Positions 1 through 60,608 of a stretch of 64,000 bases of DNA are shown here, piece after piece. Each line of letters starts with the position of its first letter. The stretch's first letter is position 1. The position numbers and the translations under genes were made by a program. The notes under the pieces are model-generated. The model did not search any database. It was not told the origin of the DNA and saw only the letters and a list, made by a program, of their open reading frames with translations. This DNA comes from a bacterium (GTDB lineage: Bacteria > UBA10199 > JADFYH01): NCBI GenBank assembly GCA_046346885.1, contig JAXMHI010000008.1:52049-116048 (forward strand), written 5' to 3'.

Positions 1-243
1 AAGGTCGTCATCCAAAAGATCATCAAAGATGAAAGCGAACATTTGAATTATCTCGAACGGATGATCGAGCACTTTCCCGCCGACCTTTCGTTGAAAGATT
101 CCCCGCTTTTCGAGTTTGAAGAAAATTGCTTCATCGACTATATAAAAAGGATGAGGCAATATTTCGAAACGTCGGGGACGAATGACGAAATCAAGCCGGT
201 CAGTCCCCCCAAAGCCTTCGCCGAACGGCGACAGGCGGGATGA
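1..243 (+). CDS. 3' end of an unidentified protein (possible ferritin-like E-x-x-H motif); partial at window edge
   Basis: Open frame from window start to TGA at 241-243; translation ...KDESEHLNYLERMIEHF...; no recognisable family. Confidence 0.3.
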   Translation, partial: KVVIQKIIKDESEHLNYLERMIEHFPADLSLKDSPLFEFEENCFIDYIKRMRQYFETSGTNDEIKPVSPPKAFAERRQAG

Positions 244-253
244 TTCCTCGCTT

Positions 254-25375: not shown

Positions 25376-25585
25376 ATTTGTTTTTATTTTCTAATAAAGA
25401 AAAAGAGTTTTTCCCCTTTTCTCCGGGTGATTTTTTACTTTTTTTATTCTCTCCTCTCTCTGTGACAAACAATCATAATTATTTGATTTTATTTAATTTT
25501 TTTAAAAATGCCTAAAAGGGCATGGCCTTTGCGTAACAGTCCCCCCGGGTGTGTGATTTTTTTACTCATGAAAAAGGGGGATGGA

Positions 25586-25953: not shown

Positions 25954-26063
25954 TTCTTATTTGCGGAAATTTCTTTGATTTTCTGGCAACCTTCCCCCTT
26001 GCAGGCCGATAGGGCTTAGACTCCACCATTGTTTTTTCCTTAAGGATTGGTTCGGGTTTGTTT

Positions 26064-29000: not shown

Positions 29001-29939
29001 TCCGATTTCGACGTCATTCATGGCGGCTACGGCTACATCGGTCACGATTATATTTACGAAGGCGATCCCGCAAACGGTTACAGTCAACCGCTCCGGAAGG
29101 TGCAATACTCGACTTATGCGATTTCCCGGGTGCCCCCGCGGGTCCGTGATTATAAGGTTTTCATCGATTCGGAGTTGAGCATGGCCAACGCCTTGATCCG
29201 CGCCGGAAAGATCCGCGACGCGGGAATCCTGCTCAATCGTCTGAGGAATTTCATTCCGAGAAACCAGGCGGTGCCGCAAATTCCCGAAGACCGGATCACC
29301 GACGATCCGGCGACGCTCGTGCCTCTTTTCGAGAAGACCCCTTATTTGTGCTGGAGAGTGCGCATTCATCAAGAAGACGGTCTTCCCCAATTCTCGCTCA
29401 TCGACCCCTGGACCCACCATGACCGGGAGAACGGAGGGTATCCGATCTTGGAGCACGCCTCCGTGAGCGCGATTCCTTATCAAGCGGTGGAGGCGTTTCG
29501 GGATTGGCGGCGCGACCGGGACAATAGGGATTATGAAATCATGTCCGCAGAGGAAAACGAGATCATGGCCCGCGGTTCGTGGGAGCTCCCCTATCCTTGG
29601 GGCTACCATCCCAATCCCGCCTATTTAGTCTCCCGCTTGGTATTCGAAGATACTTGGAAAGACTCCTATCCCCGTCCTGTGGGTTCCCATCCCATGGGGC
29701 AACACCATTATCGCGATCGTTCGCCGTTCGGTCCCATTGACGTTTTGGGAAATACTCGAAAATGGACCTCGACCGTGATGGAGCCCGACGTCAATGCCAT
29801 GGCGGGTTTGTCCGTGAGGACGGGAACGGGGCCTTACGGGAATCCGGACTCCCGAACCTTAGGATCGACTGATAACTGGGCGGTGGATGCTAATGGTTCC
29901 TTCCGGCTTGTGCTGCGTTTTCCCCGCCGGAATCCATAA
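26064..29939 (+). CDS. Paralog B: conserved N-module + linker + Ser/Thr protein kinase (DWG variant) + PEGA + FGE-sulfatase-like domain
   Basis: 1293 aa. N-module nearly identical to paralog C. Kinase motifs GAGGFGNVY, VIKV, HRDLKPAN, DWG, GTPGYIAPEA. PEGA-like HLKAGYYVIEVSYPGYAPMRVPF. C-terminal YPWGY...GNTRKWTST...GSFRLV. The ATG at 26064 gives an MTF... start like paralog C. Confidence 0.8.
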   Translation: MTFGSSIFRSAPDATLPDHTETLLSRFSSHSLVNDSSLSASQAQVDGLVSRFTEEATNWRSLAAMATGSLFYRFGRIGTLALASRLPQAAPLFQAASYGIGLGAEVTAFEGSSRFLAYASGDRSNANLWRWSGRGGWSEGLSHSLVTFGMLKSFGHLGSEQNVVLQHVMSDLGMVGGHQVSAALGFTPRPEGSLASQFLEAEITNLQLGAGMSLLHLASPRLAAFERGLDLSIRARETTGAPNRNLENFFGPQEQLVFDGAPVSRETFAPENPFEGPQILLMSSKEGPNNGKGTIPDPSKVQRPDSVMEVTPSMMVPPSGVGVEGLSNGEEVADGEVIPGVPIRVVSESALAPTSPAPPAVAPVVIKPGDADAAAVDADPQSVGDQRTVVRPLQLPLPPAVPNGVRAGGAETLREQEVVSKLSIAPPPSGTVESGMILAGRYEVKEFLGAGGFGNVYKVLDQRLGRIGVIKVPRAEMDTVEFRPRFSNEIRITAALDPRRVVGVYDLIELADGRLIPVMEYVPGHDLSDIVGQLSVSRRLEIFAEICEGVASAHRRGFVHRDLKPANIRITSDGHVKIMDWGLAKPLDEVTAGEGGAVPTDLSARLKRNLTVGGGGMPFGTPGYIAPEAFLGGKIPNPRSLDNFALGAILYEMMSGRHPFVDDWSEQRAVANYMSTHPSVIRPVSEFKDVLIGDYPPIVYEVEPIARRSLEREQAKRFQNALEIRDAVLMAQARVEFRAIGEVRTEMKRLAARMVEAWDHFDPSHQIDSNYWDQEMYQTLYDVRDRRAAMDQRAIDLIAQLAEIKVVLTDPNPAKKMIAELSWMRLLYGGDRMPEGQRRLLIDAISKNDVATAEEKIPSMKLALETPLGMEIRATDWRTGKSLFQDGSSLYHMNVKVLPYERDRLGNYSEGAPLLDGPLATVLPQMHLKAGYYVIEVSYPGYAPMRVPFHMRLKDVRRGLLEEKPHLLNLEFIPQDLVPSDFDVIHGGYGYIGHDYIYEGDPANGYSQPLRKVQYSTYAISRVPPRVRDYKVFIDSELSMANALIRAGKIRDAGILLNRLRNFIPRNQAVPQIPEDRITDDPATLVPLFEKTPYLCWRVRIHQEDGLPQFSLIDPWTHHDRENGGYPILEHASVSAIPYQAVEAFRDWRRDRDNRDYEIMSAEENEIMARGSWELPYPWGYHPNPAYLVSRLVFEDTWKDSYPRPVGSHPMGQHHYRDRSPFGPIDVLGNTRKWTSTVMEPDVNAMAGLSVRTGTGPYGNPDSRTLGSTDNWAVDANGSFRLVLRFPRRNP
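26178..26770. repeat. Left arm of a ~590-bp near-identical inverted repeat (N-module coding DNA of paralog B)
   Basis: The same out-of-frame ORF translation (MAVFGGDGDGFFVL...GDELV) appears at 26237-26887(+) and 33435-34130(-). This implies >95% nucleotide identity in inverted orientation. Confidence 0.75.
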
Positions 29940-30178: not shown

Positions 30179-30258
30179 GAAATCTAAAAAACGCCCCCTA
30201 TGGCATAAGATCTGCTTCATTATCAACGGGTTGGTGATCATAAAAGGAGGATAGATTC

Positions 30259-30711
30259 ATGAGAAAAGGATTTTCGCTTTTTATTTTGGGTGCGGTCTTA
30301 TTGGCTTTCCAATCAGCGGGGTTTACGGAGGAAGTGGCCCACGATATGCAATTTTGCAGTCAGAAGAACGTGGATGAGCTCACCGTTAACGAATTGAAAG
30401 ACTGCGTCACTCACTTCAAAAAAACCATTAGCGCGAAAAACGGAAACATCTTGGAGATGGCTCCCCAAACCTTGACGGAAATGCCGCCTCAAACCTTGAC
30501 GGCGATGCCGCCGCAAACCGTCAATGCGATGCCGCCGCAGACGGTGAATGCCATGCCCCCGCAAACAATCAACGGAATGGCGCCGCAGACGATCACGGCG
30601 ACTCCCGTTTTCATGGCGCCTCAAACGATCAACGCGATGCCTCCCCAGACGATCAACGGGGTGAACTCGGTGATCGAGAAAAAAGGCATGGCCCCCCAAA
30701 CGCTGCGCTAA
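30259..30711 (+). CDS. Small secreted tandem-repeat protein (MPPQTxxA octapeptide repeats)
   Basis: Signal peptide MRKGFSLFILGAVLLAFQSAGF. About 9 tandem repeats of MPPQT(L/V/I)(T/N)(A/G). Strong SD AAAAGGAGGA. Confidence 0.65.
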   Translation: MRKGFSLFILGAVLLAFQSAGFTEEVAHDMQFCSQKNVDELTVNELKDCVTHFKKTISAKNGNILEMAPQTLTEMPPQTLTAMPPQTVNAMPPQTVNAMPPQTINGMAPQTITATPVFMAPQTINAMPPQTINGVNSVIEKKGMAPQTLR

Positions 30712-47977: not shown

Positions 47978-50900
47978 TCACGCCGACTGCTTGAGTTCCT
48001 TTAAAATCTTATAAAAGTATCCCTGAGAAACCCCCAGCCATTTGATGGCGGTGTAAGGCTTCGCCCCTGAATATTCGTGGGCTGCCTGAAAGACTTTCTT
48101 CACGTAGTCTTGCAGGGTGAGGTTCGCGTCGTAGAGGAAGGGGTTTTGGAAGAGCGCGTTGTTGGCGTTGGCAAGGTCGAATTCTTTGATGCGCTTGTAG
48201 ACGGTGGCCAGCGAGAGGTCGAGTACTTCCGCCGTCTTGGAGGGATTGGATCCCTGAGTTTGATACGCTTTTGCGGTAATCAATTTTTCGTAGTCGTTCC
48301 AAGTCATGTTGGGGTCGTAGAGGTTTTGCCCGTCGATGAGCACCCTCACGCCCGGCGCAGCCCCTTTGCTTATTACCGGCGGCGTCGCGCTTTCGCCTAC
48401 GGCGGCCGCCGCAGGAGACGCGGCGGCTTTCGCGCCCGAATCGATGTTTCGCCGAATTCCGTAGCTGGTCGGGAGCGATTCGTAGGTGAGTTCGTCGTGG
48501 TCGGCCAGGGCGGTGGCCACCGAGATGATGTTTTCCAACTCGCGCACGTTGCCCGGCCAATCGTACTCCAATAATTTTTTCATGAAAGAAGGAGCCAGCT
48601 TCAGATCCCTCTCGATGCCGTGCTGCTTGCGGTACATCGACATGAATTTCTCCGCCAAGAGAGGGATGTCTTCCTTGCGGTTGCGCAGGGGAGGCAGGTC
48701 AATCTTGATTTGGCAGATGCGGTAGAAAAGATCTTCGCGGAAACGCCCCGTCTTGATTTCTTCCTCTAAATTCTTATGGCTCGCCGCGACGATGCGCACG
48801 TCGACGTTGTAGGTTTTCGTGTCGCCCACGGGCGTGATTTCCGCCTCTTCCAACACGCGAAGCAGCTTTACCTGCAGGTTCATGTCGAGCTCTGCCACCT
48901 CGTCTAAAAAGAGCGTGCCGCCGTCGGCCTCGACGAAGAGGCCTTTCTTGTCCTTCGTCGCCCCCGTGAAGGAGCCGGCCTTATGGCCGAAGAGCTCGCT
49001 TTCCATGAGGTTCGCCGGGATCGCTCCGCAGTTGATGGCGACGAAGCGCTTATCTTTTCGGATTTTGTTGTTGTAGTGAAGGGCCTTCGCGATGAGTTCC
49101 TTTCCGGTTCCCGTCTCGCCGTTGATGAAGACGGCCAGCGAGGTTTCGGTGATTTTGTCCAAGAGACGGAAGATGTCGTACATCGCCTTGCTCTTGGCGA
49201 TGATCTTCTCGTAGGAGTATTTCGTCGGGATGTTGATCGACTCTTCCTCCATGATCGCTTGGTAGGCCGACACTTCGTTTTCCGCTTCCTCCAATTTTTT
49301 CCTCAGCTCGAGCTCCGCCTGCTGGTACTGATTGATCAATTTCGCGTTTTCGATCGCGATCCCCACCTGGTCGCAGAAGGCCATGAGCACCTTGAAGTTG
49401 ACCCTCTTGAAGGCGCCGGGGCGATAGCGGTTATCCAAGTAGAGTACGCCCACCGTCTTGTTGCGCGACTGGATGGGCAGGCAGAGGATGGAGCGCAGCT
49501 TCAAGATCATCACCGATTGATATTCATTAAAGCGGTTGTCCCCCGAGGCGTCGTCCGTTTGCACCGGCTCGCCCGAATTCAAGACGCGTTCGGCGATGCT
49601 CGTCGAGATCTGGGCTAAGTTGGGGGAGAGCTCGGCGTTGAGGCAGGCCTTCACTTCGAGCGTGCCCTTTTCGTCCACGAGGAGGATGAGGCCGCGTTCC
49701 GCATGCGAAAGTTCCAGGGCGTTGTGCAAGATCGTCTTCAAGAGAAAGTCGAGGTTGTGCTCCGAGTTCAAATATTTGTTGAGGGTGAGGATATACTCGT
49801 ATTCCTTCTCGAGAGTCGCCAGCCCGCTGCCTGAGTCTTCGTGCACCTCCACGGGGGCGGCCACCTGCTTTTTCACCTCCGGCTTGGGGGAGGGAACCAC
49901 CATGGTCACTCCACCCATCATCTTTTCGATTTCCTTCAAATCTTCTTTCTGTTCCGGCTCCGTGGCGAGTTCGCGGGTTTTCTCCAAGCTTTCCTGGGCC
50001 TCTTCCACCCGCAGTTGGTCGATGTAGAGTCGCGTGAAGGCCCCGTGCACCCAGTAGAGTTGACCTTTGAGGCTGGTATTCTGCTCGATGAGCCCCAGCG
50101 CGTCCCGCAGGGCGTCGCGGGAGACCTCGAATTTCTTCTGCTTGCGCAATACGTCGCCCATCTCGAGCTTGGCGCGGGCGAGAAAGTAAAGTTGGTAGGC
50201 GGTTTTCTGGGGGATGCGCTCTAAGAGGAAGATCGCGTTCACCAAATGGGGGTGCGAGTCTTCGTAGTGTCCCGACTCGTTGTAGATGATGCCCATGTTG
50301 GCGGCGATGGCCGCCTGCGAGTTGATGTCTTGGATCTTCTGGCTGATAGCCAAGGCTCGTCCGTAATAGTGGAGCGAGTTCTCGATGTCGCGGTTCACGT
50401 TGTATACGTTGCCCAAGCCGTTATAGGCGCGCAACAGCAGCTCGTAATAGCGGTGGGCCTTCGAGATTTCCACGCAGGCCTTATATTGCTCGATCGTGTG
50501 GTTTAAATCCTTCAGCGCATAATACACTTCCCCCAAATGATAATGGGTACGGGCGGTGAGGAAGTGGTGATGGATCGACTTGTAGAAATCCAGATCTTTC
50601 TGGAATTGGGCCAGGGCCTTCGGATAGTCGTGCTTCAAATGGTAGACGGTGGCCAGATCGTTATTGAGCACTTCCTTGCGTTCATTTTCCTTTAGTTCTT
50701 CTTCCCACACCTTGTGGGTGTTTTCGAAAATTTTCAGGGCCTCGTCGAGTTTCCCCTCCACGATGCGTGCTCGTCCCATGTAGTTTTCGATGATGAGGCG
50801 CTTGCCCGTACTCAAATCGAATTCTTCCAGAAGGGCGATCGCCGACGAGAAAATCTCTTTCGCCTTGTCCGGTTCGTGGCGCTTTAAGTAAATGACGCCC

Positions 50901-52987
50901 AATTTCTCGTAGACGTCGATCTTCCAGTGGATGTTGTCGCCCAGGTTCTTCACTTCCTTCAGGCGGTTGCGGATCGTGTCGAAGAGTTCGCCCGCCTTGT
51001 TGAGGTCTCCTTCCTTCAGTAAGGCGTCTCCCAGTTTGAGCGCCACATTCATCTGGGTGGTGAGGTCGAGCGAGCCGGATTTTTCGTATGCTTTCTCCAA
51101 AAAATCTTTCGCTTCCCCCGTTCTTCCTTCGCTTAAGGACTTCTCCCCCAGTTCGATGAGCGCCTCCAACGATTCCTTGCCTTGGTCGCTCGATCCCAAA
51201 TGATAGAGGTATTCGCTTTGCCTTAAAGGTTGGTCCTTCAATACTGCGGCAATTTTTTTGTGCAGCGTGTTTTTCTCCGTGGCCTTCAGGTTGGCCACGA
51301 TCGCCTTGCGAAGCAGGGGGTTCTTGAAATCGTAGGATTGGGTGCGGTCTTCCCGCTCCAAAATGCCTTCCTGCGCCAGGTGCGCCACCGTCTCGGGCAC
51401 GGCCTCGGCGCCGGTGAATTTGACGAGTTCCTCGAGGGAAGTCTCGCGGCCCACCAGGCTTAGGGTCTTGAGCACTTTCTTTTCCAAGTCGTTGCGGGTC
51501 TCGAATTGGTGCAGCAAAAACTCTTCGATGGTGGAAGGGACTTGGATCTTCGAGAAATCGATGCCCAAATCCTCATAGGTGGAGGCCTTCCAGCGGCCGT
51601 GACTGTCGAAGAGCAGGCCGCGGCTGATGAGCGCCTTGAGGAGTTCGGAGACGAAGAGGGGGTTGCCTTGGGTGCGTTGATAGAGTTCGTCGATGAGCAC
51701 CGGCGGAGGCGATTCCAAGCCCGTCATGGACGCGACGTAATCGCGCAGCTCCATCTTATTGAAGGGTTCGAGAGGCCAGGCCGCCGTGTCGGGCCCCGTT
51801 TTGAAATCTTCCGTCGTGGCCGCCAAGATCAGAAGGGAAGCGGGAAAGCTCACGAGAAAAGTCTGCAGTTTCTCGTAGTCTTCCCCGTTCAAGTCGTCCG
51901 CCACCACAACGTGGCCCGTTTGAAACTCAAGCGAGACCCCTCGACGGAAAATAAAGACCGGCGCGTTGTTGAGTTGGGCGTGAAAGCGGAACTCCTTGAG
52001 CAAACGGCTCTTGCCGATGCCGCTCGGGCCTTTGAGCAGCAAGATCTTCTTCTCCATGGGGTTGCTTAAGTTCTGCGTGAATTGCCCGAAGATCTCCTTG
52101 AATTGATCCAACTCCTTCTTGCGGCCGATGAGCTGGCCTTCGCCGGGCAGGTAAGAGAGGAGGGTGTCGGTGGTTTCGATGTCGTAATTTTTACCGGAGA
52201 GTTGGTTGAGTTCTCGGATTACCGAGGCCGCGCTCGTGTAACGGTCCGACGGATTTTTCGCCAAGAGTTTTTTGAGGATCGTGTCGAGGTATTTGGGAAT
52301 CTCTTTTCTTAGCTGCGTCGCGGGCGGGGGCGTGAGCGTCTGTTGGCGGTTGAGCGTTTCGGTCAACTGCTCGCTGCGGAAAGGATTCGTGCCCGTCAGG
52401 CACTCGTAGAGCACGACGCCCAATGAATAAAGATCGGCGCGGCCGTCGGGACGGTCGCCCAAGATAATTTCGGGGGCCATATAAGAAGGCGTCCCGGCCA
52501 TCTTTCCTTTTGGTTTGTAGCCAGCCAAGCCGAAGTCGATGATTTTGACGATCTTCTCCGACTTCGCGTCTTTACCCACGAGCATGTTCTGCGGCTTTAA
52601 GTCGAAATGATAGATGGCATGGGCGTGCAGATATTCGAGGGCGCGCAGCGACTGCACGAAGAGGTTCTCGATGGTTTCGACGGATTGATCTCGGCATGCT
52701 TCTAAAAGGTTTGGACCGTCGATGAATTCGGTGGTGAAATAATATTGATCTTGGTTCGCCTCGTAACCGAAGTCGTGAATGCGGGCCACATGGGGATGGT
52801 TCAGCTCTTTGAGCAGCGTGAACTCGTTTTTGAAATTGGCGATGGCTTCTTCTTTCGAAAAACTGATTTGAGAACTTTTGAGAAATTTGAGGGCGTAAAG
52901 GCCGGTAGGATCCTTGGCTAAGAGGACTTCCCCAGAAAAACCGCTCCCCAGTTTCTTGACCACTTCGTATTTGCCGTCAATATTCAC
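47978..52987 (-). CDS. Giant multidomain regulator: non-RD Ser/Thr kinase + P-loop NTPase + TPR repeats + GAF + sigma54-interaction AAA+ domain + two Fis-type HTH
   Basis: 1669 aa. Kinase motifs LGSGFSGEV, ALKFLK, HFDLKPQN, DFGLA, GTPSYMAPE. P-loop LLLKGPSGIGKS. TPR-rich middle. EBP motifs GETGTGKE, GSFTGA, GTLFLDEV, FREDLFYRI, PPLRNRKEDI. C-terminal HTHs. Confidence 0.8.
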   Translation of the reverse strand: MNIDGKYEVVKKLGSGFSGEVLLAKDPTGLYALKFLKSSQISFSKEEAIANFKNEFTLLKELNHPHVARIHDFGYEANQDQYYFTTEFIDGPNLLEACRDQSVETIENLFVQSLRALEYLHAHAIYHFDLKPQNMLVGKDAKSEKIVKIIDFGLAGYKPKGKMAGTPSYMAPEIILGDRPDGRADLYSLGVVLYECLTGTNPFRSEQLTETLNRQQTLTPPPATQLRKEIPKYLDTILKKLLAKNPSDRYTSAASVIRELNQLSGKNYDIETTDTLLSYLPGEGQLIGRKKELDQFKEIFGQFTQNLSNPMEKKILLLKGPSGIGKSRLLKEFRFHAQLNNAPVFIFRRGVSLEFQTGHVVVADDLNGEDYEKLQTFLVSFPASLLILAATTEDFKTGPDTAAWPLEPFNKMELRDYVASMTGLESPPPVLIDELYQRTQGNPLFVSELLKALISRGLLFDSHGRWKASTYEDLGIDFSKIQVPSTIEEFLLHQFETRNDLEKKVLKTLSLVGRETSLEELVKFTGAEAVPETVAHLAQEGILEREDRTQSYDFKNPLLRKAIVANLKATEKNTLHKKIAAVLKDQPLRQSEYLYHLGSSDQGKESLEALIELGEKSLSEGRTGEAKDFLEKAYEKSGSLDLTTQMNVALKLGDALLKEGDLNKAGELFDTIRNRLKEVKNLGDNIHWKIDVYEKLGVIYLKRHEPDKAKEIFSSAIALLEEFDLSTGKRLIIENYMGRARIVEGKLDEALKIFENTHKVWEEELKENERKEVLNNDLATVYHLKHDYPKALAQFQKDLDFYKSIHHHFLTARTHYHLGEVYYALKDLNHTIEQYKACVEISKAHRYYELLLRAYNGLGNVYNVNRDIENSLHYYGRALAISQKIQDINSQAAIAANMGIIYNESGHYEDSHPHLVNAIFLLERIPQKTAYQLYFLARAKLEMGDVLRKQKKFEVSRDALRDALGLIEQNTSLKGQLYWVHGAFTRLYIDQLRVEEAQESLEKTRELATEPEQKEDLKEIEKMMGGVTMVVPSPKPEVKKQVAAPVEVHEDSGSGLATLEKEYEYILTLNKYLNSEHNLDFLLKTILHNALELSHAERGLILLVDEKGTLEVKACLNAELSPNLAQISTSIAERVLNSGEPVQTDDASGDNRFNEYQSVMILKLRSILCLPIQSRNKTVGVLYLDNRYRPGAFKRVNFKVLMAFCDQVGIAIENAKLINQYQQAELELRKKLEEAENEVSAYQAIMEEESINIPTKYSYEKIIAKSKAMYDIFRLLDKITETSLAVFINGETGTGKELIAKALHYNNKIRKDKRFVAINCGAIPANLMESELFGHKAGSFTGATKDKKGLFVEADGGTLFLDEVAELDMNLQVKLLRVLEEAEITPVGDTKTYNVDVRIVAASHKNLEEEIKTGRFREDLFYRICQIKIDLPPLRNRKEDIPLLAEKFMSMYRKQHGIERDLKLAPSFMKKLLEYDWPGNVRELENIISVATALADHDELTYESLPTSYGIRRNIDSGAKAAASPAAAAVGESATPPVISKGAAPGVRVLIDGQNLYDPNMTWNDYEKLITAKAYQTQGSNPSKTAEVLDLSLATVYKRIKEFDLANANNALFQNPFLYDANLTLQDYVKKVFQAAHEYSGAKPYTAIKWLGVSQGYFYKILKELKQSA

Positions 52988-53125
52988 CGTTTTGTCTCCT
53001 CAATAAGGGTGGAATGGCTTATTTTGGACTAAAATATGAGTATATACAAATTAAAATATGTGGTGTCTCTATTCTCCAGAATAAAGAAACGTATTCTAAA
53101 TTTTAAGCCTTTCCCAACTGCATAA

Positions 53126-53154
53126 TTTTAAAATCTTTTAAAATCATATAGTTG
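53126..53154. promoter_or_regulatory. AT-rich upstream element: 2x10-bp tandem repeat TTTTAAAATC plus IHF-like site AATCATATAGTTG
   Basis: Direct repeat at 53126-53145, overlapping a near-match to the IHF consensus WATCAANNNNTTR; located 35-70 nt upstream of the sigma54 promoter. Confidence 0.3.
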
Positions 53155-53179
53155 CTGATTTTAATCAAAATAAAAAGCT

Positions 53180-53195
53180 TGGTACGTGCTTTGCT
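53180..53195 (+). promoter_or_regulatory. Sigma54 (-24/-12) promoter
   Basis: TGGTACGTGCTTTGCT versus consensus TGGCACG-N4-TTGCW has one mismatch and correct GG/GC spacing. It lies 45 nt upstream of the small ORF at 53240 and is divergent from the sigma54-activator gene. Confidence 0.55.
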
Positions 53196-53239
53196 TTATT
53201 GAAAGGGCAATGGTGGGGGCTCTTTAAAAGGAGCAAAAA

Positions 53240-53386
53240 ATGGGTATGGCCCTTCAAGAAATGGATCAAATGATTTTATGCGAGCTCGAAGAGTTGCTCG
53301 AGCATCAGATCAGCCAAAGCAATTTGGAGTTGCAAGAACTCCTCAAAATGAATCCTCAAATTCCTCCTCCCCCCGAAGAGTTATAA
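53240..53386 (+). CDS. Small acidic 48-aa peptide (unannotated in the ORF track)
   Basis: ATG with strong SD AAAAGGAG 7 nt upstream; MGMALQEMDQMILCELEELLEHQISQSNLELQELLKMNPQIPPPPEEL; sits downstream of the sigma54 promoter. Confidence 0.35.
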   Translation: MGMALQEMDQMILCELEELLEHQISQSNLELQELLKMNPQIPPPPEEL

Positions 53387-53582
53387 TTGTTAAAAGTTGC
53401 TCATAGGTCTCCCTTTTCGGGGAAAATAAAGGGGCTTGAGAAGCATTTTATTCGAAGAAAGACTCAACTTTACTCTCCCCCTCTCCGATAAACCTTATAA
53501 GGGACACACGCTTGGGGACGGCTGAAAGTCTATCTTTTTAGGCTTTTGACATCCCCATTCAGAATAAGGTGTAATAGAGATC

Positions 53583-55394
53583 ATGCGGCACACTTTTCTC
53601 CCTTCCAGTCTTATTTCTCCAAAAAAGAACGGAAAGAATTCTTTTATCCAAGGCTTAGGCCGTTTTCTTTTGCTTTTCGCCCTCACGGCTTGTGCCGGGG
53701 CGGGGGCTCCGGGAGGCGGCGCCACGCCGGTGGGTGGGGGAGAAGGTTTAAGCAATGCGGGCGCACCGCCCATTTCGCTTCCCGGACCGGAGGCCCTCAA
53801 TATGAACGGCGTCTCCGTTTCGAGCGACGGCAGCGGCACGGCCACGGTCACCACGGCCCCGGGAACGGGATCGCCGGGCAACTACACGGGCGTGCGCAAT
53901 ATCGGCGACGTGGCATGGTATCAACCGGTGAGAGAATTTTTCATCCGCTCCGCCTATGCGGTGGGGGAAAGCGTCAACCTCCCCATCGGGCCCAACGGTT
54001 CCACCGTGCCTTCGCCTTTTACCATTCCCGCCAAGATCGGCGATTGGCTTGAGTTCAAGCAGTGCTTGAAAGCGAATCCCAATATCTGCAGCGCGGGGTT
54101 CCGCATCGAAGTCATCTTGGGCACGAATAACGGCGGCACCGCCGTGTTCTCCTCGCCCCCCACGAAGTTCTCGATCGATCCGGGCAAGGGTCAGATTTAT
54201 TACATGATGAAGGAACCCAAAAAGGGTTGGGATTGGAAGACCCTGTTCGTCTCCACCGCCTACGCCCAAGAGGCCCACGGGCCCGGCCCCCTCAACGTTG
54301 ATTTAAGCGATTTTACCGCCGCCACCTGCGGCTTGCCTGCTTTTGCTTCCACCCCCGCGCCGACTCCCAAGGATGAAGGCAACGTATGCACGGTGAAGGG
54401 GAATAACCACAACCCGGGCGTCATTGAAGAAGTCGCGAAGATCAACTGCAATCCCCAAGGGGAAAACCGCGGCGTTTATGCCTATGACGACGTGGGAATG
54501 CCTCGGTTGGCCGTTTGGTCGGCCAACAAGCTTATCGTGCTTTCCCATTTGGATTCTCCCACGATCACCCTCGAGAAAAAATGGGTGTATCCCGCGGATA
54601 TTTCCCACGTGCAAAGCATCGGGGGCCATTTGATCGTCTTCCTCGACCGCAAAGGAAACGATTCGCTTCCCCACTTTTACGTCGACACGGCTTGCGCGTC
54701 GAATCCCGTCATCGACAACGTCGAGCAATTCATCGGATTCGACAATAACGGCAGCACTCCCAGCTTCGGTCGGGGAGGCGAGTTCGTGGCCACGGTGAAG
54801 AATCCCCGCGGCTATTGCGCCATCGTGGGCACTTCCACCCGCGACAACCCCGTCGCCTCGGTGAGCGAGGAGTATTGCCAAAGCCTGCCTCTGACCGTCG
54901 TCCAGATCCTTCCGCGGGCGGATGATTCCGTGCCGGTGTGCGGCCTTAATTACGTAGTGTTAAGCCCCAACCGGGGAGAATTGATTTATACGTTCCATCC
55001 TTTTGATTCCGTCCGCGATCCCCGCTGCGTCGCGGAGCCGGCCGGGGAGGCGCGGTCGAAGCATTTTACCATTCCCGGCGCCGTAGCCCCGGTGAGCTTC
55101 GTCTTGGGGAACTCGAGCGCGGAGCGTAACGATCCCGTTTTAGTGGTGCTCGATTCTCCCGCGGATAAGAAATCGAAATTGATTCCGTTCAAGTTGGAAG
55201 CGGTCGGCTACAAGTTCAACCTGGCGGCCGACCCCACGAAGGTGCAGGAGCTCCCGATACGGGGAGCCGCGGTGGGGTACGACCACAATAGTTTCATTTC
55301 CTACCCCTCCGATCTGACGGCGAGCCCGGAGCCTCATAGAACCCGTGGCACGATTTTCGGTTCGGATGCCGAACCAGGGACGTTGATGCGATGA
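53583..55394 (+). CDS. Lipoprotein of unknown function, paralog 1 (Gly/Ala/Pro-rich N-terminal stalk, Cys-containing globular region)
   Basis: Lipobox LTACAG; 603 aa; shares N-terminal ~70 aa and scattered blocks (FTAATC...CNP...LAVWS.NKL) with the next gene. Confidence 0.6.
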   Translation: MRHTFLPSSLISPKKNGKNSFIQGLGRFLLLFALTACAGAGAPGGGATPVGGGEGLSNAGAPPISLPGPEALNMNGVSVSSDGSGTATVTTAPGTGSPGNYTGVRNIGDVAWYQPVREFFIRSAYAVGESVNLPIGPNGSTVPSPFTIPAKIGDWLEFKQCLKANPNICSAGFRIEVILGTNNGGTAVFSSPPTKFSIDPGKGQIYYMMKEPKKGWDWKTLFVSTAYAQEAHGPGPLNVDLSDFTAATCGLPAFASTPAPTPKDEGNVCTVKGNNHNPGVIEEVAKINCNPQGENRGVYAYDDVGMPRLAVWSANKLIVLSHLDSPTITLEKKWVYPADISHVQSIGGHLIVFLDRKGNDSLPHFYVDTACASNPVIDNVEQFIGFDNNGSTPSFGRGGEFVATVKNPRGYCAIVGTSTRDNPVASVSEEYCQSLPLTVVQILPRADDSVPVCGLNYVVLSPNRGELIYTFHPFDSVRDPRCVAEPAGEARSKHFTIPGAVAPVSFVLGNSSAERNDPVLVVLDSPADKKSKLIPFKLEAVGYKFNLAADPTKVQELPIRGAAVGYDHNSFISYPSDLTASPEPHRTRGTIFGSDAEPGTLMR

Positions 55395-57298
55395 AAAAAC
55401 ACCCCCTCCATCTTTTAAGTTTTTTATTCTTCGTTTTAAGCCTGATCGCTTGCGCGGGCGCGGGTGCGCCCGGAGGAGGGGCGTCGCCGGTCGGGGGCGG
55501 CGAGAGCGGCATCGGTACCGGCAATGCGGGCGCCCCACCCATCTCGATTCCCGGGCCCGAGGCTTTGAACATGGACGCCGTCACCGTGAGCGCTCCGGAT
55601 TCCGCGGGCAACGTGACGGTGACGGGGATGACGGGCGCGGGCACTCCCGGCCAAGAAGCGCGGTTGCGCGACATCGGCAGCGTGACGAGCCGCCGATGGC
55701 CCAACAAGATCGAGAAACTCTTTATCCCCAACGCCGTGGCGGCGGCCGGGGGAAGCTGCAACATCAAGGTGCTGCCGGACGGAGCTTTCAAATGCATCAT
55801 CTCCGGAGCGGCCGTGGGCGACTTCATCGCCATGAAGCAATGCGATTTCAGGGGCAACTGCAGCGCCGAGCTCGCCAAGCAAGTGCTCGCCGTCGACAAT
55901 ACTTCGGGTCCCGCGACCATCGTCACGCCCCCGACGGTGAAGGGTATGACGGTCGATTCGAAGGGGAACATCTTTACGAACAGTTCCAATAAATCGTGGA
56001 AGTGGACCGATCTTTTCATCTCAAACGCCTACGGGGCGGATGAAGGTCATGATTCGGAACCTACTCCCCACGTTTCGACGACCGTCTTAACGCCGACCCC
56101 TTCCGTTGTAGGCACCGCTCCCATAAATTTGGAGGGGCGCCTGAACCCTTTACAGGGCTTCACGGCGGCCACTTGCGCCGATCTCCCCGCCGATTATTCC
56201 CCGGCCCCGGCGGCGTCTCCCGCGGGTAAAACCTGTACGCTCAAGAAGACGGGCAGCGACGGGAACGCGGAGGTGCTGGCGACCCTTACGAATTGCAATC
56301 CCGAAGCGGGCGGCATCTACTATTTCGAGCAATCGGCGCAGCAAAAACTCGCCGTTTGGTCGGAGAACAAGCTTTGGGTGATCAACACCAACCAGAAAGG
56401 CCCCTCGGCCGTCGAGGAAAAGCGCGTTTATTGGTCGAACATCAGCGGCGTGCAGGCGATCAACGACGGGGTGGGGTCCGATAACCTTTTCGTCGTGTTG
56501 GAGCAAAAAACCGGCGCCAATTACCCCCTCCTGGCGATCAACCACGATTGCATCGGTTTCGGCTATGTCCGCGAACTTGCGCCGGCCCGCAAAGTGACCG
56601 GTTTCACTTCGTTCGGCAGTTCGTTCATGATGTCCGTCGATTTCGGGCGCGAGTCGTGTCTGGTCTTCGGTTCTTCCGGGGAAATCACGATCGGGGCCTT
56701 AAATAAAGACCCCGTGACCTGCCAGGCCGCCCCCTTCACCGACGTGGGGATCTTGAAGGCGGAGATTTGCGGTCTTCAATACGTCGCGCTCAGCCCCGAT
56801 ACCAAGGAGTTGATCCAGGGTTTCCATGCGACCAATTTGGGTTACGGGGGATGCAATACGCCCAGCTATATCATCTCAAAGAGGTCGATCCAGGATTCCG
56901 GCAAGCCCGTGAGCCTCGCTGTCGGACGGGACCGACATTCCCGGGGAGATAAGGTAGTCGTGCTGGTGACTCCCACCGGCGAAAACGAGCATGCAAAATT
57001 GTTCCCCTTTCAAGTGAACGACCGAGACAATCGCGTCACTCTTCAATCGATGATGCCGGTCGATTTGGGGGTCATGAAGCCGACTCTTCTGCGCTATAGC
57101 TCGAACGGCACGTCGGAAGACGGGCAATTCGTCACCAACGTCGTTGACACGACTGCTTCTTCCAATCGTTCCTCCTACGTGTATCAGCGGTCTTCCGATT
57201 TCAAGACCTTCAACCTGCCGACGGTCAACAGCGATGCCCTGAAGGCTATCGATAAAAATGCCATCGAGCGATCTCCCAATCCTCCCCGCATCCGTTAG
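55391..57298 (+). CDS. Lipoprotein of unknown function, paralog 2
   Basis: Lipobox LIACAG; 635 aa; its ATG overlaps the stop of paralog 1 (ATGA). Confidence 0.6.
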   Translation: MKKHPLHLLSFLFFVLSLIACAGAGAPGGGASPVGGGESGIGTGNAGAPPISIPGPEALNMDAVTVSAPDSAGNVTVTGMTGAGTPGQEARLRDIGSVTSRRWPNKIEKLFIPNAVAAAGGSCNIKVLPDGAFKCIISGAAVGDFIAMKQCDFRGNCSAELAKQVLAVDNTSGPATIVTPPTVKGMTVDSKGNIFTNSSNKSWKWTDLFISNAYGADEGHDSEPTPHVSTTVLTPTPSVVGTAPINLEGRLNPLQGFTAATCADLPADYSPAPAASPAGKTCTLKKTGSDGNAEVLATLTNCNPEAGGIYYFEQSAQQKLAVWSENKLWVINTNQKGPSAVEEKRVYWSNISGVQAINDGVGSDNLFVVLEQKTGANYPLLAINHDCIGFGYVRELAPARKVTGFTSFGSSFMMSVDFGRESCLVFGSSGEITIGALNKDPVTCQAAPFTDVGILKAEICGLQYVALSPDTKELIQGFHATNLGYGGCNTPSYIISKRSIQDSGKPVSLAVGRDRHSRGDKVVVLVTPTGENEHAKLFPFQVNDRDNRVTLQSMMPVDLGVMKPTLLRYSSNGTSEDGQFVTNVVDTTASSNRSSYVYQRSSDFKTFNLPTVNSDALKAIDKNAIERSPNPPRIR

Positions 57299-57350
57299 TT
57301 CGCCCGTGGCGATTGACACCTTTCTCCCTACCCCCTAAAGTGCGGCCCCT

Positions 57351-57818
57351 ATGGCAGAAGGCGAAAAAGTCATTGCGACTAACCGCAAGGCCCACTTCAA
57401 CTACGAAATTGTCGAGAAGTTGGAAGCCGGGATCGCCCTCGTGGGCTCCGAGGTGAAGTCGCTTCGAGAAGGCAAGGCGAACCTCTCCGACGCCTATGCG
57501 ATGATCGAGAAGGGGGAGGCCTATCTCTACCACTGCCACATCAGCCCCTACGACAACGCGGGACCCTTCAACCACGAGCCCTTAAGGGTGCGGAAGCTCC
57601 TCTTGCACCGCCGGGAGATCGAAAAGCTCATCGGCAAGACACAGGAAAAGGGTTTCACCCTGGTGCCGACCAAACTTTATTTCAAAAAAGGCCGCGCGAA
57701 AGTGGAGATCGGGCTCGCAAAAGGAAAAAAACTTTACGACAAACGCGAGACGATTAAACGACGCGAACAAGACCGTGAAATGAGCAAAGCGATCAAGCGC
57801 GGGCGCGAACGGGGATAA
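57351..57818 (+). CDS. smpB: SsrA-binding protein SmpB
   Basis: KVIATNRKAHFNYEIVEKLEAGIALVGSEVKSLR is canonical SmpB; 155 aa. Confidence 0.9.
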   Translation: MAEGEKVIATNRKAHFNYEIVEKLEAGIALVGSEVKSLREGKANLSDAYAMIEKGEAYLYHCHISPYDNAGPFNHEPLRVRKLLLHRREIEKLIGKTQEKGFTLVPTKLYFKKGRAKVEIGLAKGKKLYDKRETIKRREQDREMSKAIKRGRERG

Positions 57819-58052
57819 AAAAATATCCTCATAAACCTTTTAAAAACGGACGTTTACTTTTTCTCCTTTCTTTTTTTCTTCCCCAATTTTTCCCGAAGCG
57901 CTCCCGCGATTTTTGACGCGCATGACGGCAAATATCGATGAAATTTGCCTCCGCCGTTTGACACGTCGCATTAATTCGTTGACAACTTTATCCAACTCTG
58001 GTCGAAAATAAATACAGATAGGGGAATAGACTTGAGCAAGGGGGTTAGCCGG

Positions 58053-60608
58053 ATGACGGGCCCAACTAGCTTAGAGTCTAGTCAGGTAGCGCAGATCTTT
58101 AGTCAGTTCCATCTTTACGACGACGGTCCGACCAGTGTTCTTGACCGTTCGGCGGGGATTGGTTCCTCTACTTCTTCCTTCCATAATCCTCTCGGGGAAA
58201 TCGCGGAAAAGCTTAATCAAACCGGTGCCGTGCTTGGTTTGGCCAGCGTCGTTTGTTCGTTCATTCCCCCTCTAAGGCCCATCGGGGTATTAGGCATTAA
58301 TTTCCTTTCCGCTCCCCCCGTGGCCGCCGCGCTTTTGGCGTCCGGTGCTTATTCCATTTACCATCAAATTCCCCAAACCTCCGCGGCCTTCGGGCGCCTC
58401 TTCACTTCCTATTCGAATTCTTCCCATTCCCGTTTCGAAGATCTCCTCCAAGTCTGCGGTTTCGGGGTCGGCGCTTTAGGCATTTGGGTGGGGGCGAGCT
58501 CTTTCACTTTGGGCGGCAAGACCTATCTGGCCACCCGCCGACAACTTCTCGCGGAAGGCTTCGCTCCTCTCGAAGCGTCGCGCACCGCCTATTTACGGGC
58601 CGATGCGGTGAGGCGCGCGGTGCAAGATCCGGAGATCTGGACCCAGTTCGCCCGGGGAAACGTGGCATTAAGTACCGCTCAAAGGGAGTTTTTGTTGAGA
58701 TCCGGCCATGTGTCGGAAGCGATTTTAGTGGGCGGTTCGACCTTGGTGGGAGTGGGAAAATTCGGTTATGGCATAAGCCACCTTTACGATCGTTATCGAC
58801 GTGGAAGCCGGGTCAACGCGGGAGACGTGGGCAATCTGTTGCTGGGTTTTGCCTTGGACGTTTATCCCGGGGTGACCACCTATTTGTATCGGGCCGGCCG
58901 GGGAAATCGCCGTTTCAATCTGGAACCCGCCATGAGCCAAGAGTTGACGAATGAATCCTATCGAAATCCCTCTTTAAGAACCTGGGTTCTCGAAAAATTG
59001 GAGAAAGGTTTGCCGCGGCTTTCTCCGCAGCAAGAGAGGGATTATGTCTCCCAAAGTCAGAGCGATTTGTCGCGCGTGGAGGCCATGCTCGACCGGGCCG
59101 AGGCCCTCCCCATTCTTTCTCAGGACTTGCTGGCATTAAATGAAAGGGGATTTCCCGGCGCCTTGCCGACTTCGATCGTGCCGGCTCCACGCCGCTTTTC
59201 GAGTTCTTCCACGGCCCCGGGGGCGCCTCGCGAGCCGATTTCCCGTCAAGAATTAGGCAATTTTAGCGTCGAACAATTTTATCAGGCTTACTCGGAAGGT
59301 CGGGTGACTCCGACGGAAGTCTTGAAAATGATCCTCGATCATCCCGTCACCCAGAACGGCAGTATTTTTCCGCGTCCCTTGCAGGGCGGAAGATTGAACG
59401 CCCTATTGAGGCGGTCTGCGGAGGAAAGCACGCGGCGCTTCCAACTGGGAACCCCTCGACCCTTGGAGGGGATTTTCGTCGCGGTGAAGGATATTTTTCC
59501 CGGTTTGGACGGCGTCATGCAGGTGGGTTCCAAGACCTCCCGCATTACCGGCATCGATCCGAGTCCGGTGGTGGAAATCCTCAAGGAAATGGGGGCCATC
59601 CCCGTGCCCGTGGGCATGACGGCTGCCGCCAATGGAGGCTCCGGGCTTCACTCGGGATTCGGTTACATTCCCCATCCCACCCGCGAAGGTTATGACCCCG
59701 CCGGTTCTTCTTCGGCGACGGCCCATGTGGTCGGTCTGACGGATTTCCCCATCAACATCGGGATCGGGACCGACACGGGTGGTTCGATCACCGCCCCCGC
59801 CGGCGCAGTGGGGCTCTTCGGCTTCGTGCCTCCCTCGGGCGTCATTTCGACGCGCAACATGGTGCCCTTCGCCACTTTCCTAGACCGGGTGGGCGTTATC
59901 GCCCGCCACGCCCAGGACGGAATGATGCTCGCACGCACCCTCTCGCGTACGGTCGGGGACGACCCGCACATGCGTTTCCAAAACCCCGGTATGCTCTACC
60001 AGCCTTCCACCCAAAAGCCCGTGCTCCTCTATTTGGAGAAGTTGATCACCGAAGCCTCCGAGCAGGCCCGTTATAATTTCGTGCGGCAGCTGGAATACTA
60101 TCGTCGCCACGGCTACGCGGTGATCGGGCTCGACGCGAACTGGAATTTCATCGCTGAGGCGCCCATGCTGCTCTATCCTTTCGACGCCTATTCGGCCGCC
60201 GCCTTTACCCATACCAATCCCCTGCGGCCGACCTTCATGGAACCCCCCCGCAGAACGTTGGACTATAACCTGTTACTTCGCCTGCCTAAGGGAGGAATAG
60301 CGCTTCGTTTCGGGCTTTTCGATCGGGCTCGCCAGCTGTCGTCCCGTTTCCAGGATATCTTGCACCAAAAGATCGGCGGTGATTTCGTGCTTATGTCTCC
60401 TTCGGCCGAGGCAATCACCACCCAAGAGATTTTAAACGGACAAGCGGGAGCCAAACTCGACCATCACGACTTGATCACCATGCAGAAAAACCGGGTTCCC
60501 GATTGGGGCCAGCTCAACTTGCCCACGACCCCCGGTTCACCCGTTGGCGTCGTCTTGACCGGTTCGCTTCCGAATCTGCTTCATTTTACCACGCCTCCTC
60601 CCCAGTGA
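58053..60608 (+). CDS. Amidase-signature family enzyme with a ~400-aa N-terminal membrane-associated extension of unknown function
   Basis: C-terminal half has GSSSATAHVVG...GTDTGGSITAPAG (AS-family cis-Ser/nucleophile-Ser motifs). N-terminal half has 3-4 hydrophobic helices. ATG at 58053 has SD AAGGGGG. Confidence 0.65.
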   Translation: MTGPTSLESSQVAQIFSQFHLYDDGPTSVLDRSAGIGSSTSSFHNPLGEIAEKLNQTGAVLGLASVVCSFIPPLRPIGVLGINFLSAPPVAAALLASGAYSIYHQIPQTSAAFGRLFTSYSNSSHSRFEDLLQVCGFGVGALGIWVGASSFTLGGKTYLATRRQLLAEGFAPLEASRTAYLRADAVRRAVQDPEIWTQFARGNVALSTAQREFLLRSGHVSEAILVGGSTLVGVGKFGYGISHLYDRYRRGSRVNAGDVGNLLLGFALDVYPGVTTYLYRAGRGNRRFNLEPAMSQELTNESYRNPSLRTWVLEKLEKGLPRLSPQQERDYVSQSQSDLSRVEAMLDRAEALPILSQDLLALNERGFPGALPTSIVPAPRRFSSSSTAPGAPREPISRQELGNFSVEQFYQAYSEGRVTPTEVLKMILDHPVTQNGSIFPRPLQGGRLNALLRRSAEESTRRFQLGTPRPLEGIFVAVKDIFPGLDGVMQVGSKTSRITGIDPSPVVEILKEMGAIPVPVGMTAAANGGSGLHSGFGYIPHPTREGYDPAGSSSATAHVVGLTDFPINIGIGTDTGGSITAPAGAVGLFGFVPPSGVISTRNMVPFATFLDRVGVIARHAQDGMMLARTLSRTVGDDPHMRFQNPGMLYQPSTQKPVLLYLEKLITEASEQARYNFVRQLEYYRRHGYAVIGLDANWNFIAEAPMLLYPFDAYSAAAFTHTNPLRPTFMEPPRRTLDYNLLLRLPKGGIALRFGLFDRARQLSSRFQDILHQKIGGDFVLMSPSAEAITTQEILNGQAGAKLDHHDLITMQKNRVPDWGQLNLPTTPGSPVGVVLTGSLPNLLHFTTPPPQ

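Follow-up and report, generated by a model that had tools for sequence, protein, structure and literature searches.

A stretch of bacterial DNA 64,000 nucleotides long (contig JAXMHI010000008.1, positions 52,049 to 116,048), which we call the window, carries a predicted sigma-54 promoter, TGGTACGTGCTTTGCT, at 53180-53195. On one side of it, transcribed divergently, is the gene for a 1669-residue activator. On the other are a small open reading frame (ORF) encoding a 48-residue acidic protein and two lipoprotein genes, A and B. What does this promoter drive? We consider it probable that the small protein is its dedicated output, that the adjacent activator belongs with it, and that the lipoproteins are expressed from motifs of their own, with or without read-through from the sigma-54 site.

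No known principle is overturned here, and the value of the locus is that of a well-specified test case rather than of a surprise. It offers a cleanly delimited, conserved sigma-54 promoter whose sole obligatory cargo would be a 5-kDa protein from a family of four members. It also offers a rare lipoprotein family predicted to combine a sandwich with a propeller, with about 40 representatives among 1.8 billion proteins, and, throughout that family, a promoter-like motif that could help to trace which genes of these uncultured bacteria form the regulon of some as yet unidentified alternative sigma factor.

The features discussed below, with positions in the window, are as follows.

47978-52987, - strand: activator gene, 1669 residues; GTG start at 52987, 193 bp from the sigma-54 site.
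53115-53154, no strand: imperfect palindrome with 19-nt arms, 84% complementary; no more than a candidate site for an activator or architectural protein.
53180-53195, + strand: predicted sigma-54 -24/-12 promoter TGGTACGTGCTTTGCT, from consensus match and conservation; transcript start predicted near 53206.
53219-53234, + strand: 6-bp hairpin in the leader of the small ORF, its 3' arm being the Shine-Dalgarno sequence (GCUCUU/AAGGAGC), -6.6 kcal/mol.
53240-53386, + strand: small ORF, 48 residues; Shine-Dalgarno AAGGAG 6 nt upstream; 45 nt after the sigma-54 site.
53466-53491, + strand: AACTTT-N14-CGATAA, promoter-like, resembling sigma-28 or extracytoplasmic function (ECF) promoters; sole match in the window.
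53501-53509, + strand: GGGCRCRC box, local copy GGGACACAC, conserved downstream of CGATAA in L001-L010.
53546-53575, + strand: sigma-70-like TTGACA-N18-TGTAAT, ending 7 nt before the ATG of lipoprotein A; identified by conservation only.
53583-55394, + strand: lipoprotein A, 603 residues; long signal peptide, lipobox LTAC (Cys37), Gly/Pro tether, predicted beta-sandwich, linker and 7-bladed propeller.
55391-57298, + strand: lipoprotein B, 635 residues; lipobox LIAC (Cys21); its start overlaps the stop of A (ATGA).

The sigma-54 site

An initial annotation of the window, made from the sequence alone, had noted that TGGTACGTGCTTTGCT departs at one position from the consensus TGGCACG-N4-TTGCW. 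This is correct. The mismatch is C to T at position 4, so that 11 of the 12 specified positions agree, and no other sequence in the 64 kb comes within one mismatch. The annotation had also suggested ranking the site by sigma-54 scoring; within the window a crude weighted score places it first (17.9 of 20.9). Taken alone, the match is not significant and could be chance: a window should hold 0.38 sites this close to the consensus (one mismatch or none), and shuffling produced one or more in 28 of 100 sequences.

What makes the site count as more than a chance match is its conservation at the orthologous position. Beside the window we recovered the independent loci L001 (metagenome-assembled genome (MAG) GCA_016786645.1), L002, L003 (a GTDB MAG) and L005 (an 82-kb metagenome contig). 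L002 and L004 are identical to each other and count as one lineage. L006, L007, L008, L009 and L010 are more distant; L011, on a contig from another sample, has the same lipoprotein (P0032) as one of them, and a JGI contig is a further related locus whose DNA did not enter the comparison. At the orthologous place, GG-N10-TTGCT is found as TGGCATTCGAATTGCT in L001, AGGTACGCCTCTTGCT in L002/L004 and TGGTATCTTCTTTGCT in L005, in each case with a small-ORF homologue 37-52 nt further downstream. Outside these sites the AT-rich DNA can hardly be aligned; in all four lineages the GG and the TTGCT(T) are the same, and the N4-5 spacer and the flanks differ. From base composition we estimate the chance of finding GG-N10-TTGCT in a 200-nt AT-rich stretch at about 0.004 per locus, and four coincident sites are therefore not attributable to chance. 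By sequence, then, this is a genuine and conserved sigma-54-type promoter, and presumably an active one.

The initial annotation had expected the -24/-12 element to be kept in orthologous loci. It is kept in L001, L002/L004 and L005 and is degenerate in L003, where the former -24 GG reads TT, TTGCT is retained, and a stretch of about 195 nt has gone, the small ORF with it. The + strand around the sigma-54 site and the small ORF gave no sigma-70-like site. A sigma-54-like site on the opposite strand inside the small ORF (53301, -) is unconserved, and we judged it a chance match.

The upstream DNA is AT-rich. GC content falls to 27-40% in the intergenic DNA of this region against about 55-60% in the flanking genes, and it is 27-35% around the palindrome upstream of the sigma-54 site. 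Here a direct repeat and a site resembling that of integration host factor (IHF) had been described as the layout typical of a sigma-54 promoter with its enhancer-binding protein (EBP). The repeat is real, with two copies of TTTTAAAATC at 53126-53145 nested in the 53115-53154 palindrome; its use as an activator site could not be substantiated. The IHF-like match, with one mismatch, carries no information, since matches of this quality number 47 in the window, where 33 would be expected. The initial annotation had also suggested looking upstream for palindromic activator sites repeated elsewhere. Activator sites are usually inverted repeats some 80-150 bp before the promoter; the compared loci gave only AT-rich palindromes of the TTTTAAAA type, in three loci including the window, at varying distances from the promoter. 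In L001 and L005, too, words of this type recur in the DNA before the sigma-54 site, more often than in mononucleotide shuffles.

The small ORF

The 48-residue ORF with a strong Shine-Dalgarno sequence 45 nt downstream of the promoter had been proposed in the initial annotation as an unlisted gene. It is in fact listed in GenBank, as U1F57_07180, and its coding-type substitution pattern indicates that it is a real gene. Homologues of 44-50 residues occupy the same position in L001, L002 and L005, with a conserved Shine-Dalgarno sequence. Among them, differences at third codon positions are about twice as frequent as those at second positions. Any two of the genes are separated by 8-12 synonymous codon changes, some of them serine codons that switch between AGC and TCC/TCT.

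The encoded protein has an isoelectric point of 4.05 (about 4-5.6 across the family), lacks a signal peptide, and ends in a Pro-rich acidic C-terminus; by inspection it has a Leu-rich amphipathic core. The best-conserved part of the four homologues is this core, LLEHQISQSNLELQELL, the central amphipathic helix. The C-termini read PPPPEEL in the window and NPPEE or NPPLED elsewhere, the run of prolines being unconserved. The protein has no match in Pfam, NCBIfam or the PDB, and its family has only four members among 5.8 billion database proteins.

Is the small ORF also controlled at the level of translation? The leader hairpin in the window has an equivalent in L001 (834-850, -7.2 kcal/mol). 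In L002 a hairpin of the same 6-7 bp class, at 92-113, is built from a different sequence pair, GACAUCC/GGAUGUC (-13.8 kcal/mol, z -4.7), which suggests possible translational control. None was seen in the folded L005 fragment. A consensus fold of the leader gave no pairs, the alignment being out of register, and folds of single sequences gave only the short Shine-Dalgarno hairpins. Hairpins over the Shine-Dalgarno sequence in three of four loci are weak evidence that translation may be regulated.

Two distant loci that lack the acidic micro-protein, L006 (3949-4047) and L008 (2129-2227), have a possible conserved 32-residue ORF, MQ[YF]S..IIHF..YNL*. It sits between the GGGCRCRC box and the lipoprotein gene and has no obvious Shine-Dalgarno sequence.

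The divergent activator

The activator gene starts 193 bp from the sigma-54 site on the opposite strand, as the initial annotation had it (about 190 bp), and Pfam recovers both the kinase and the sigma-54 AAA+ domains. The domain order is Ser/Thr kinase, STAND NTPase (AAA_16), TPR, GAF, Sigma54_activat, AAA_lid_14 and a weakly matched C-terminal helix-turn-helix (HTH). Sigma54_activat (PF00158) scores 228 bits against a cut-off of 20.2 and Pkinase 166 bits; TPR_12, GAF, AAA_16 (35.8 bits) and AAA_lid_14 match as well. TPR_MalT, at 43.7 bits, falls just under its cut-off of 45, and the C-terminal HTH_23 match is weak (21.3 bits, cut-off 24.6). The best NCBIfam model is that for NifA, which aligns with residues 1062 through 1605, under its cut-off. 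Scores for the named EBP equivalogs stay below the NCBIfam cut-offs throughout (NifA 353 against 529, NtrC 318 against 559, NorR 305 against 476), which places the activator outside every one of them.

The motifs expected of an EBP are intact: Walker A (GETGTGKE), GSFTGA, Walker B (LFLDEV) and the arginine finger (REDLFYR). So are those of the kinase, GSGFSGEV, ALK34, HFDLKPQN (non-RD), DFG151 and APE171. With this complete Hanks-type Ser/Thr motif set, the kinase is apparently active. Full-length orthologues in L003 and L005 are 58-62% identical, that of L003 being intact including the GSFTGA loop, and the activators of L006 and L010 share the domain architecture. We know of no characterised EBP or activator whose sensor joins a eukaryote-like kinase to STAND NTPase, TPR and GAF modules, and a literature search for a paper joining a protein kinase domain with EBP terms found none. 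The kind of system is known; the architecture of its activator is unusual.

Promoter-like motifs before the lipoprotein genes

Between the small ORF and lipoprotein A lies a gap of 196 nt that contains promoter-like elements. Each of the ten lineages examined has exactly one motif of the AACTTT-N14-CGATAA type, placed before its first lipoprotein gene. Its variants include AACTCC, AACCCT and CGATA[CT], with CCGATAT in L009 and AACACC-N15-GCCGATAA in L010. The spacing is constant and the spacer sequences are unrelated between loci. In relaxed form, AAC[CT]3-N14-CGATA[AT], the motif was found eight times in the 332 kb of sequence covered, both strands counted, against about 0.3 expected, and all eight copies stand before first-in-row lipoprotein genes. 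L007 and L009, where the lipoprotein has no adjacent activator gene, have the relaxed motif too. Judged by its bases, the motif looks most like a sigma-28 promoter; its AAC-N17-CG spacing means that it could be an ECF promoter. Neither the 64-kb window nor the scanned parts of L003 and L005 yielded a sigma factor gene.

The GGGCRCRC box follows CGATAA by 9-13 nt in the close loci and by 23-45 nt in the distant ones. We tried the box as the -24 element of a second sigma-54 promoter and rejected it, there being no GC at the required spacing in any locus; a conserved RNA fold was not found for it either. Several loci have a similar sequence, GGC[AG]CAC, after the start codon of the lipoprotein gene, where it is read as M-[WR]-[HR]-T.

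Nearer the start codon, TTGACA-N17/18-T[GA]TAAT is present in four close loci (the window, L002, L003 and L005) and absent from L001. This may be a sigma-70-type promoter, whose mRNA would have almost no leader, or else the Shine-Dalgarno region (AAGGTG) of longer transcripts. A riboswitch or attenuator in the lipoprotein leader was considered and discarded, the consensus fold energy being about zero; an Rfam scan of 52900-58100 with E up to 1 returned two chance-level matches only. No intrinsic + strand terminator follows the small ORF or lipoprotein B.

Lipoproteins A and B

The initial annotation had described two tandem paralogous lipoproteins with an ATGA overlap, Gly-rich stalks and cysteines, and our comparison agrees. 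A and B are 33% identical (E 2e-60) and share the lipobox cysteine, the Gly/Pro tether, a signature, GAPPISIPGPEALNM, and conserved cysteine residues. The lipobox cysteine is invariant in an alignment of five sequences and nearly invariant in one of 15, and with lipoboxes that fit [LVI][ASTVI][GAS]C both are predicted lipoproteins. They are probably membrane-tethered, disulfide-bonded envelope proteins. We place the start of lipoprotein A at 53583 because homologues support the upstream start. GenBank starts it at Met74 (P0005, 530 residues), dropping the signal peptide and lipobox (53583-53802).

That the products were unrecognisable, as had been stated, holds for sequence families and gives way with structure prediction, which proposes a sandwich and a 7-bladed propeller. 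The lipoproteins have no match in Pfam, NCBIfam or PDB sequences, WD40, YVTN and PQQ repeat profiles included (Atg21 reached E 0.086). AlphaFold2 models reached a mean predicted local distance difference test (pLDDT) score of 54 with five sequences and 68.5 with 15. In these models a disordered linker joins a small beta-sandwich at the N-terminus to a C-terminal domain that is all beta. Blocks of 10 residues in the propeller region (about residues 240-580 of lipoprotein A) mostly average 75-94 in the 15-sequence model. Searched against the PDB with Foldseek, the C-terminal domain matches 7-bladed propellers with E around 1e-6 (DDB1, LGI1 EPTP, Rae1, Vps39). These are eukaryotic propellers at 9-12% identity, so the fold alone is shared.

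A word-indexed search of 5.8 billion proteins gave four hits and added no lipoprotein relatives; it took a profile search run exhaustively over 1.84 billion representatives to find them, with 40 matches at E up to 1e-3. Among the most distant members the N-terminal domain is the only part held in common, and their repeats, VG..P.GVA...AYV.N..DN.VS.IDL, read as YVTN-like. Every family member contains [LF]F[IV]xxAYA twice, each copy falling in a low-confidence linker of the model (about 117-126 and 220-228 in lipoprotein A, 109-118 and 208-216 in lipoprotein B).

What the promoter is tied to

The sigma-54 site and the small ORF occur together in all four lineages that have either (the window, L001, L002 and L005), and both are absent from L003, L006, L007, L008, L009 and L010. 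L003, which has lost the two with its lipoprotein intact, shows them to be separable from the lipoprotein. The lipoproteins have a promoter-like motif of their own, and hence are at most co-regulated by read-through, which the absence of a + strand terminator makes possible. These observations lead us to favour, with some confidence, a sigma-54 promoter with the micro-protein as its dedicated output and the adjacent activator beside it, the lipoproteins being served by their own motifs with or without read-through. The comparison shows the sequence features, their conservation and co-occurrence, the domain content and the modelled fold. The activity of the promoter, its assignment to this activator, the location of the lipoproteins and the roles of the products are what we infer from sequence.

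How might such a locus work? The promoter at 53180-53195 would probably be opened by the divergent 1669-residue activator. Signals may be integrated by the activator's kinase, STAND NTPase, TPR and GAF domains, and its AAA+ domain, with the GSFTGA loop, would remodel sigma-54 RNA polymerase. The dedicated product would be the acidic 48-residue protein, cytoplasmic and probably a coiled coil. With no terminator in the way, transcription may run on into the two translationally coupled lipoprotein genes. The motifs before those genes (AACTTT-N14-CGATAA, then the sigma-70-like element) are apparently older, and with motifs of their own the lipoproteins would not depend solely on sigma-54 for expression. 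The lipoproteins themselves would present a beta-sandwich and a 7-bladed propeller, a typical scaffold for binding ligands or proteins, on a flexible Gly/Pro tether.

Several observations weigh against this account. L003, L006, L008 and L010 keep an intact activator gene and have no adjacent sigma-54 promoter. The activator must therefore have other targets, which leaves adjacency as the link between it and 53180-53195. A convincing conserved upstream activator site was not found in the sigma-54 loci compared. Where the flanks are known, the usual gene order is SLT-LysM, the activator gene on the - strand, one or two lipoprotein genes and then smpB; this synteny reaches housekeeping genes (smpB, SLT-LysM), so the conserved adjacency may reflect shared ancestry and not function. 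Finally, the AACTCC of L006 and L008 and the AACACC of L010 overlap the reverse complement of the activator's Shine-Dalgarno sequence, which makes these three loci weaker as independent support for the lipoprotein motif.

The initial annotation had taken the sigma-54 promoter, correctly placed divergent from the gene for a kinase-containing EBP, to drive the lipoproteins too, within a self-contained regulon. A single sigma-54 transcript as the main driver of the small ORF and both lipoproteins now seems unlikely. The genes do share a strand, no terminator separates the small ORF from lipoprotein A, A and B overlap by ATGA, and the divergent pairing of activator and lipoprotein genes is retained where the lipoproteins are only about 20% identical. 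Yet the 196-nt gap before lipoprotein A holds motifs that are family-wide, and in L007 and L009 the motif stands without an adjacent activator. Neither the GG-N10-GC site nor the small ORF exists in L003, L006, L008 and L010, which keep activator and lipoprotein; with orthologous activators persisting in this way, the locus is not demonstrably self-contained. The small ORF might instead be a cis-acting leader whose translation tunes lipoprotein expression, for example by ribosome stalling at PPPP, and would then not yield a protein with a role of its own. It is on the same strand upstream of the lipoproteins, its C-terminus is Pro-rich, and in three of four loci its Shine-Dalgarno sequence is tied up in a hairpin. 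We find this quite improbable: conservation peaks in the central helix LLEHQISQSNLELQELL and not at the C-terminus, where the prolines vary, and the next start codon is 196 nt away with no conserved RNA structure or terminator in between. Known secretion-monitor arrest peptides carry a signal or transmembrane segment, and the 48-residue peptide has neither.

Least credible of all is that the sigma-54 match arose by chance in AT-rich DNA and that the small ORF is read from an ordinary sigma-70 promoter. The expected 0.38 matches per window and the 28 of 100 shuffles would permit this for the window by itself, but GG and TTGCT(T) are invariant in four lineages amid varying flanks and spacers, and GG and the ORF were lost together in L003. 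Moreover, no sigma-70-like site was found on the + strand, and the neighbouring EBP has an intact GSFTGA loop. A bolder extension of the account that we favour, and a speculative one to which we give little weight, is that the sigma-54 site and the micro-protein form a regulatory unit that was placed between the activator gene and an alternative-sigma promoter of greater age. The activator would switch on the micro-protein, which would then act in trans on that promoter or on the activator. If so, it might be an anti-sigma- or anti-activator-like modulator of the sigma-28/ECF-type lipoprotein promoter, or a feedback ligand whose PPPPEEL-COOH docks on the activator's TPR in the manner of EEVD tails in TPR clamps. 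The result would be a cascade from sigma-54 through a micro-protein to an alternative sigma factor in an uncultured lineage.

Other sigma-54-like sites and neighbouring genes

A second sigma-54-like site in the window, TGGCATAAGATCTGCT at 30201-30216 (+), belongs to an AT-rich intergenic stretch of 320 nt and precedes a strong Shine-Dalgarno sequence, AAAGGAGG, by 43 nt. The ORF that follows (30259-30711) encodes a secreted protein of 150 residues that consists of MPPQT[ILV]N[AG] repeats and matches no family. A weaker site, GGGCATGGCCTTTGCG at 25518-25533 (+), is found between two large paralogous genes (21572-25285 and 26058-29939) whose products, of 1237 and 1293 residues, each have a Ser/Thr kinase and an FGE-sulfatase-like domain.

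L003 has a near-perfect sigma-54 site, TGGCACAAGTCTTGCTTTAT at 14801-14816 (-), 3 kb from the lipoprotein and preceding a 609-residue ORF with no family match. About 125 nt upstream of it (L003 ~14925-14955) is a perfect palindrome with 14-nt arms, TATATATAAGACTA-GAA-TAGTCTTATATATA. This site may be a target of the L003 activator, whose neighbouring promoter decayed. Two extra sites, both intergenic, are near the paralogous lipoprotein loci L007 and L009. TGGCATCTTCTTTGCT in L007, at 1698-1713 (+), is nearly identical to the small-ORF promoter of L005 and precedes a gene for a 291-residue lipocalin-like protein; TGGCCCCCTTTTTGCT in L009, at 8678-8693 (-), is sigma-54-like and precedes a gene for a 249-residue protein. 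Intergenic near-consensus sites such as those at window 30201, L003 14801 and L007 1698 argue that sigma-54 is in use in these genomes. The window also has, at 182-2512 (+), a ptsP-like gene (GAF and PEP-utilising enzyme I of the nitrogen-related phosphotransferase system). This phosphotransferase system usually occurs in bacteria that have rpoN.

Beyond the lipoproteins comes smpB (within 57313-57818 of the window, its promoter-like site included). Wherever the activator gene is present, smpB is found 37-61 nt after the last lipoprotein gene, a spacing read in the window, L001, L003, L005, L006, L008 and L010. It has its own TTGACA-17-TAAAGT site at 57313-57341, which ends 10 nt before the ATG. 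Next, at 58032-60608 (+), is the gene for a protein of 858 residues with an amidase-signature domain confined to residues ~405-715 and a long N-terminal region that matches no family; L001 and the JGI contig have this gene in the same place, after smpB.

Comparison with known systems

The closest parallel is a sigma-54 promoter with a divergent EBP of the NifA/NorR type. The locus resembles such systems in its GG-N10-GC element, in the AT-rich DNA upstream and in the activator gene about 190 bp away; the activator does so in its GAF and Sigma54_activat domains, GSFTGA loop, Walker A and B motifs, arginine finger and C-terminal HTH (here a weak match). It differs in having about 1050 extra N-terminal residues, with a non-RD Ser/Thr kinase, a STAND NTPase and TPR, and a palindromic upstream activator site was not identified in the loci compared.

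The N-terminal two-thirds of the activator recall another group. In PknK of Mycobacterium tuberculosis and in STAND regulators of the MalT type, a kinase or NTPase is followed by TPR and then by a DNA-binding output. The order Pkinase, AAA_16, MalT-like TPR is the same. The output is not: theirs is a LuxR-type HTH, whereas here it is GAF with a sigma-54 AAA+ activator.

For the lipoprotein motif there are two models. The consensus for sigma-28 (FliA/SigD/WhiG) is TAAAGTTT-N11-GCCGATAA, that is, TAAA-N15-GCCGATAA. Against this consensus, CGATAA agrees with the -10 core at six of six positions and AACTTT with AAGTTT at five of six, but the spacer is one base longer and the TAAA of the -35 element is absent. 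ECF promoters have AAC at -35 and CGT at -10, with 16-17 nt between AAC and CG; that of sigma-E is GGAACTT-N16-TCAAA. Our motif has the AAC-N17-CG spacing, but its -10 element reads CGA(T), not CGT.

BamB is an envelope lipoprotein with an 8-bladed beta-propeller, and propeller proteins with YVTN repeats are also known. Lipoproteins A and B are like these in joining a lipobox to a predicted propeller body, with YVTN-like repeats in their remote relatives. They are unlike BamB in that the model has seven blades where BamB has eight, and in their additional N-terminal beta-sandwich, which contains GAPPISIPGPEALNM.

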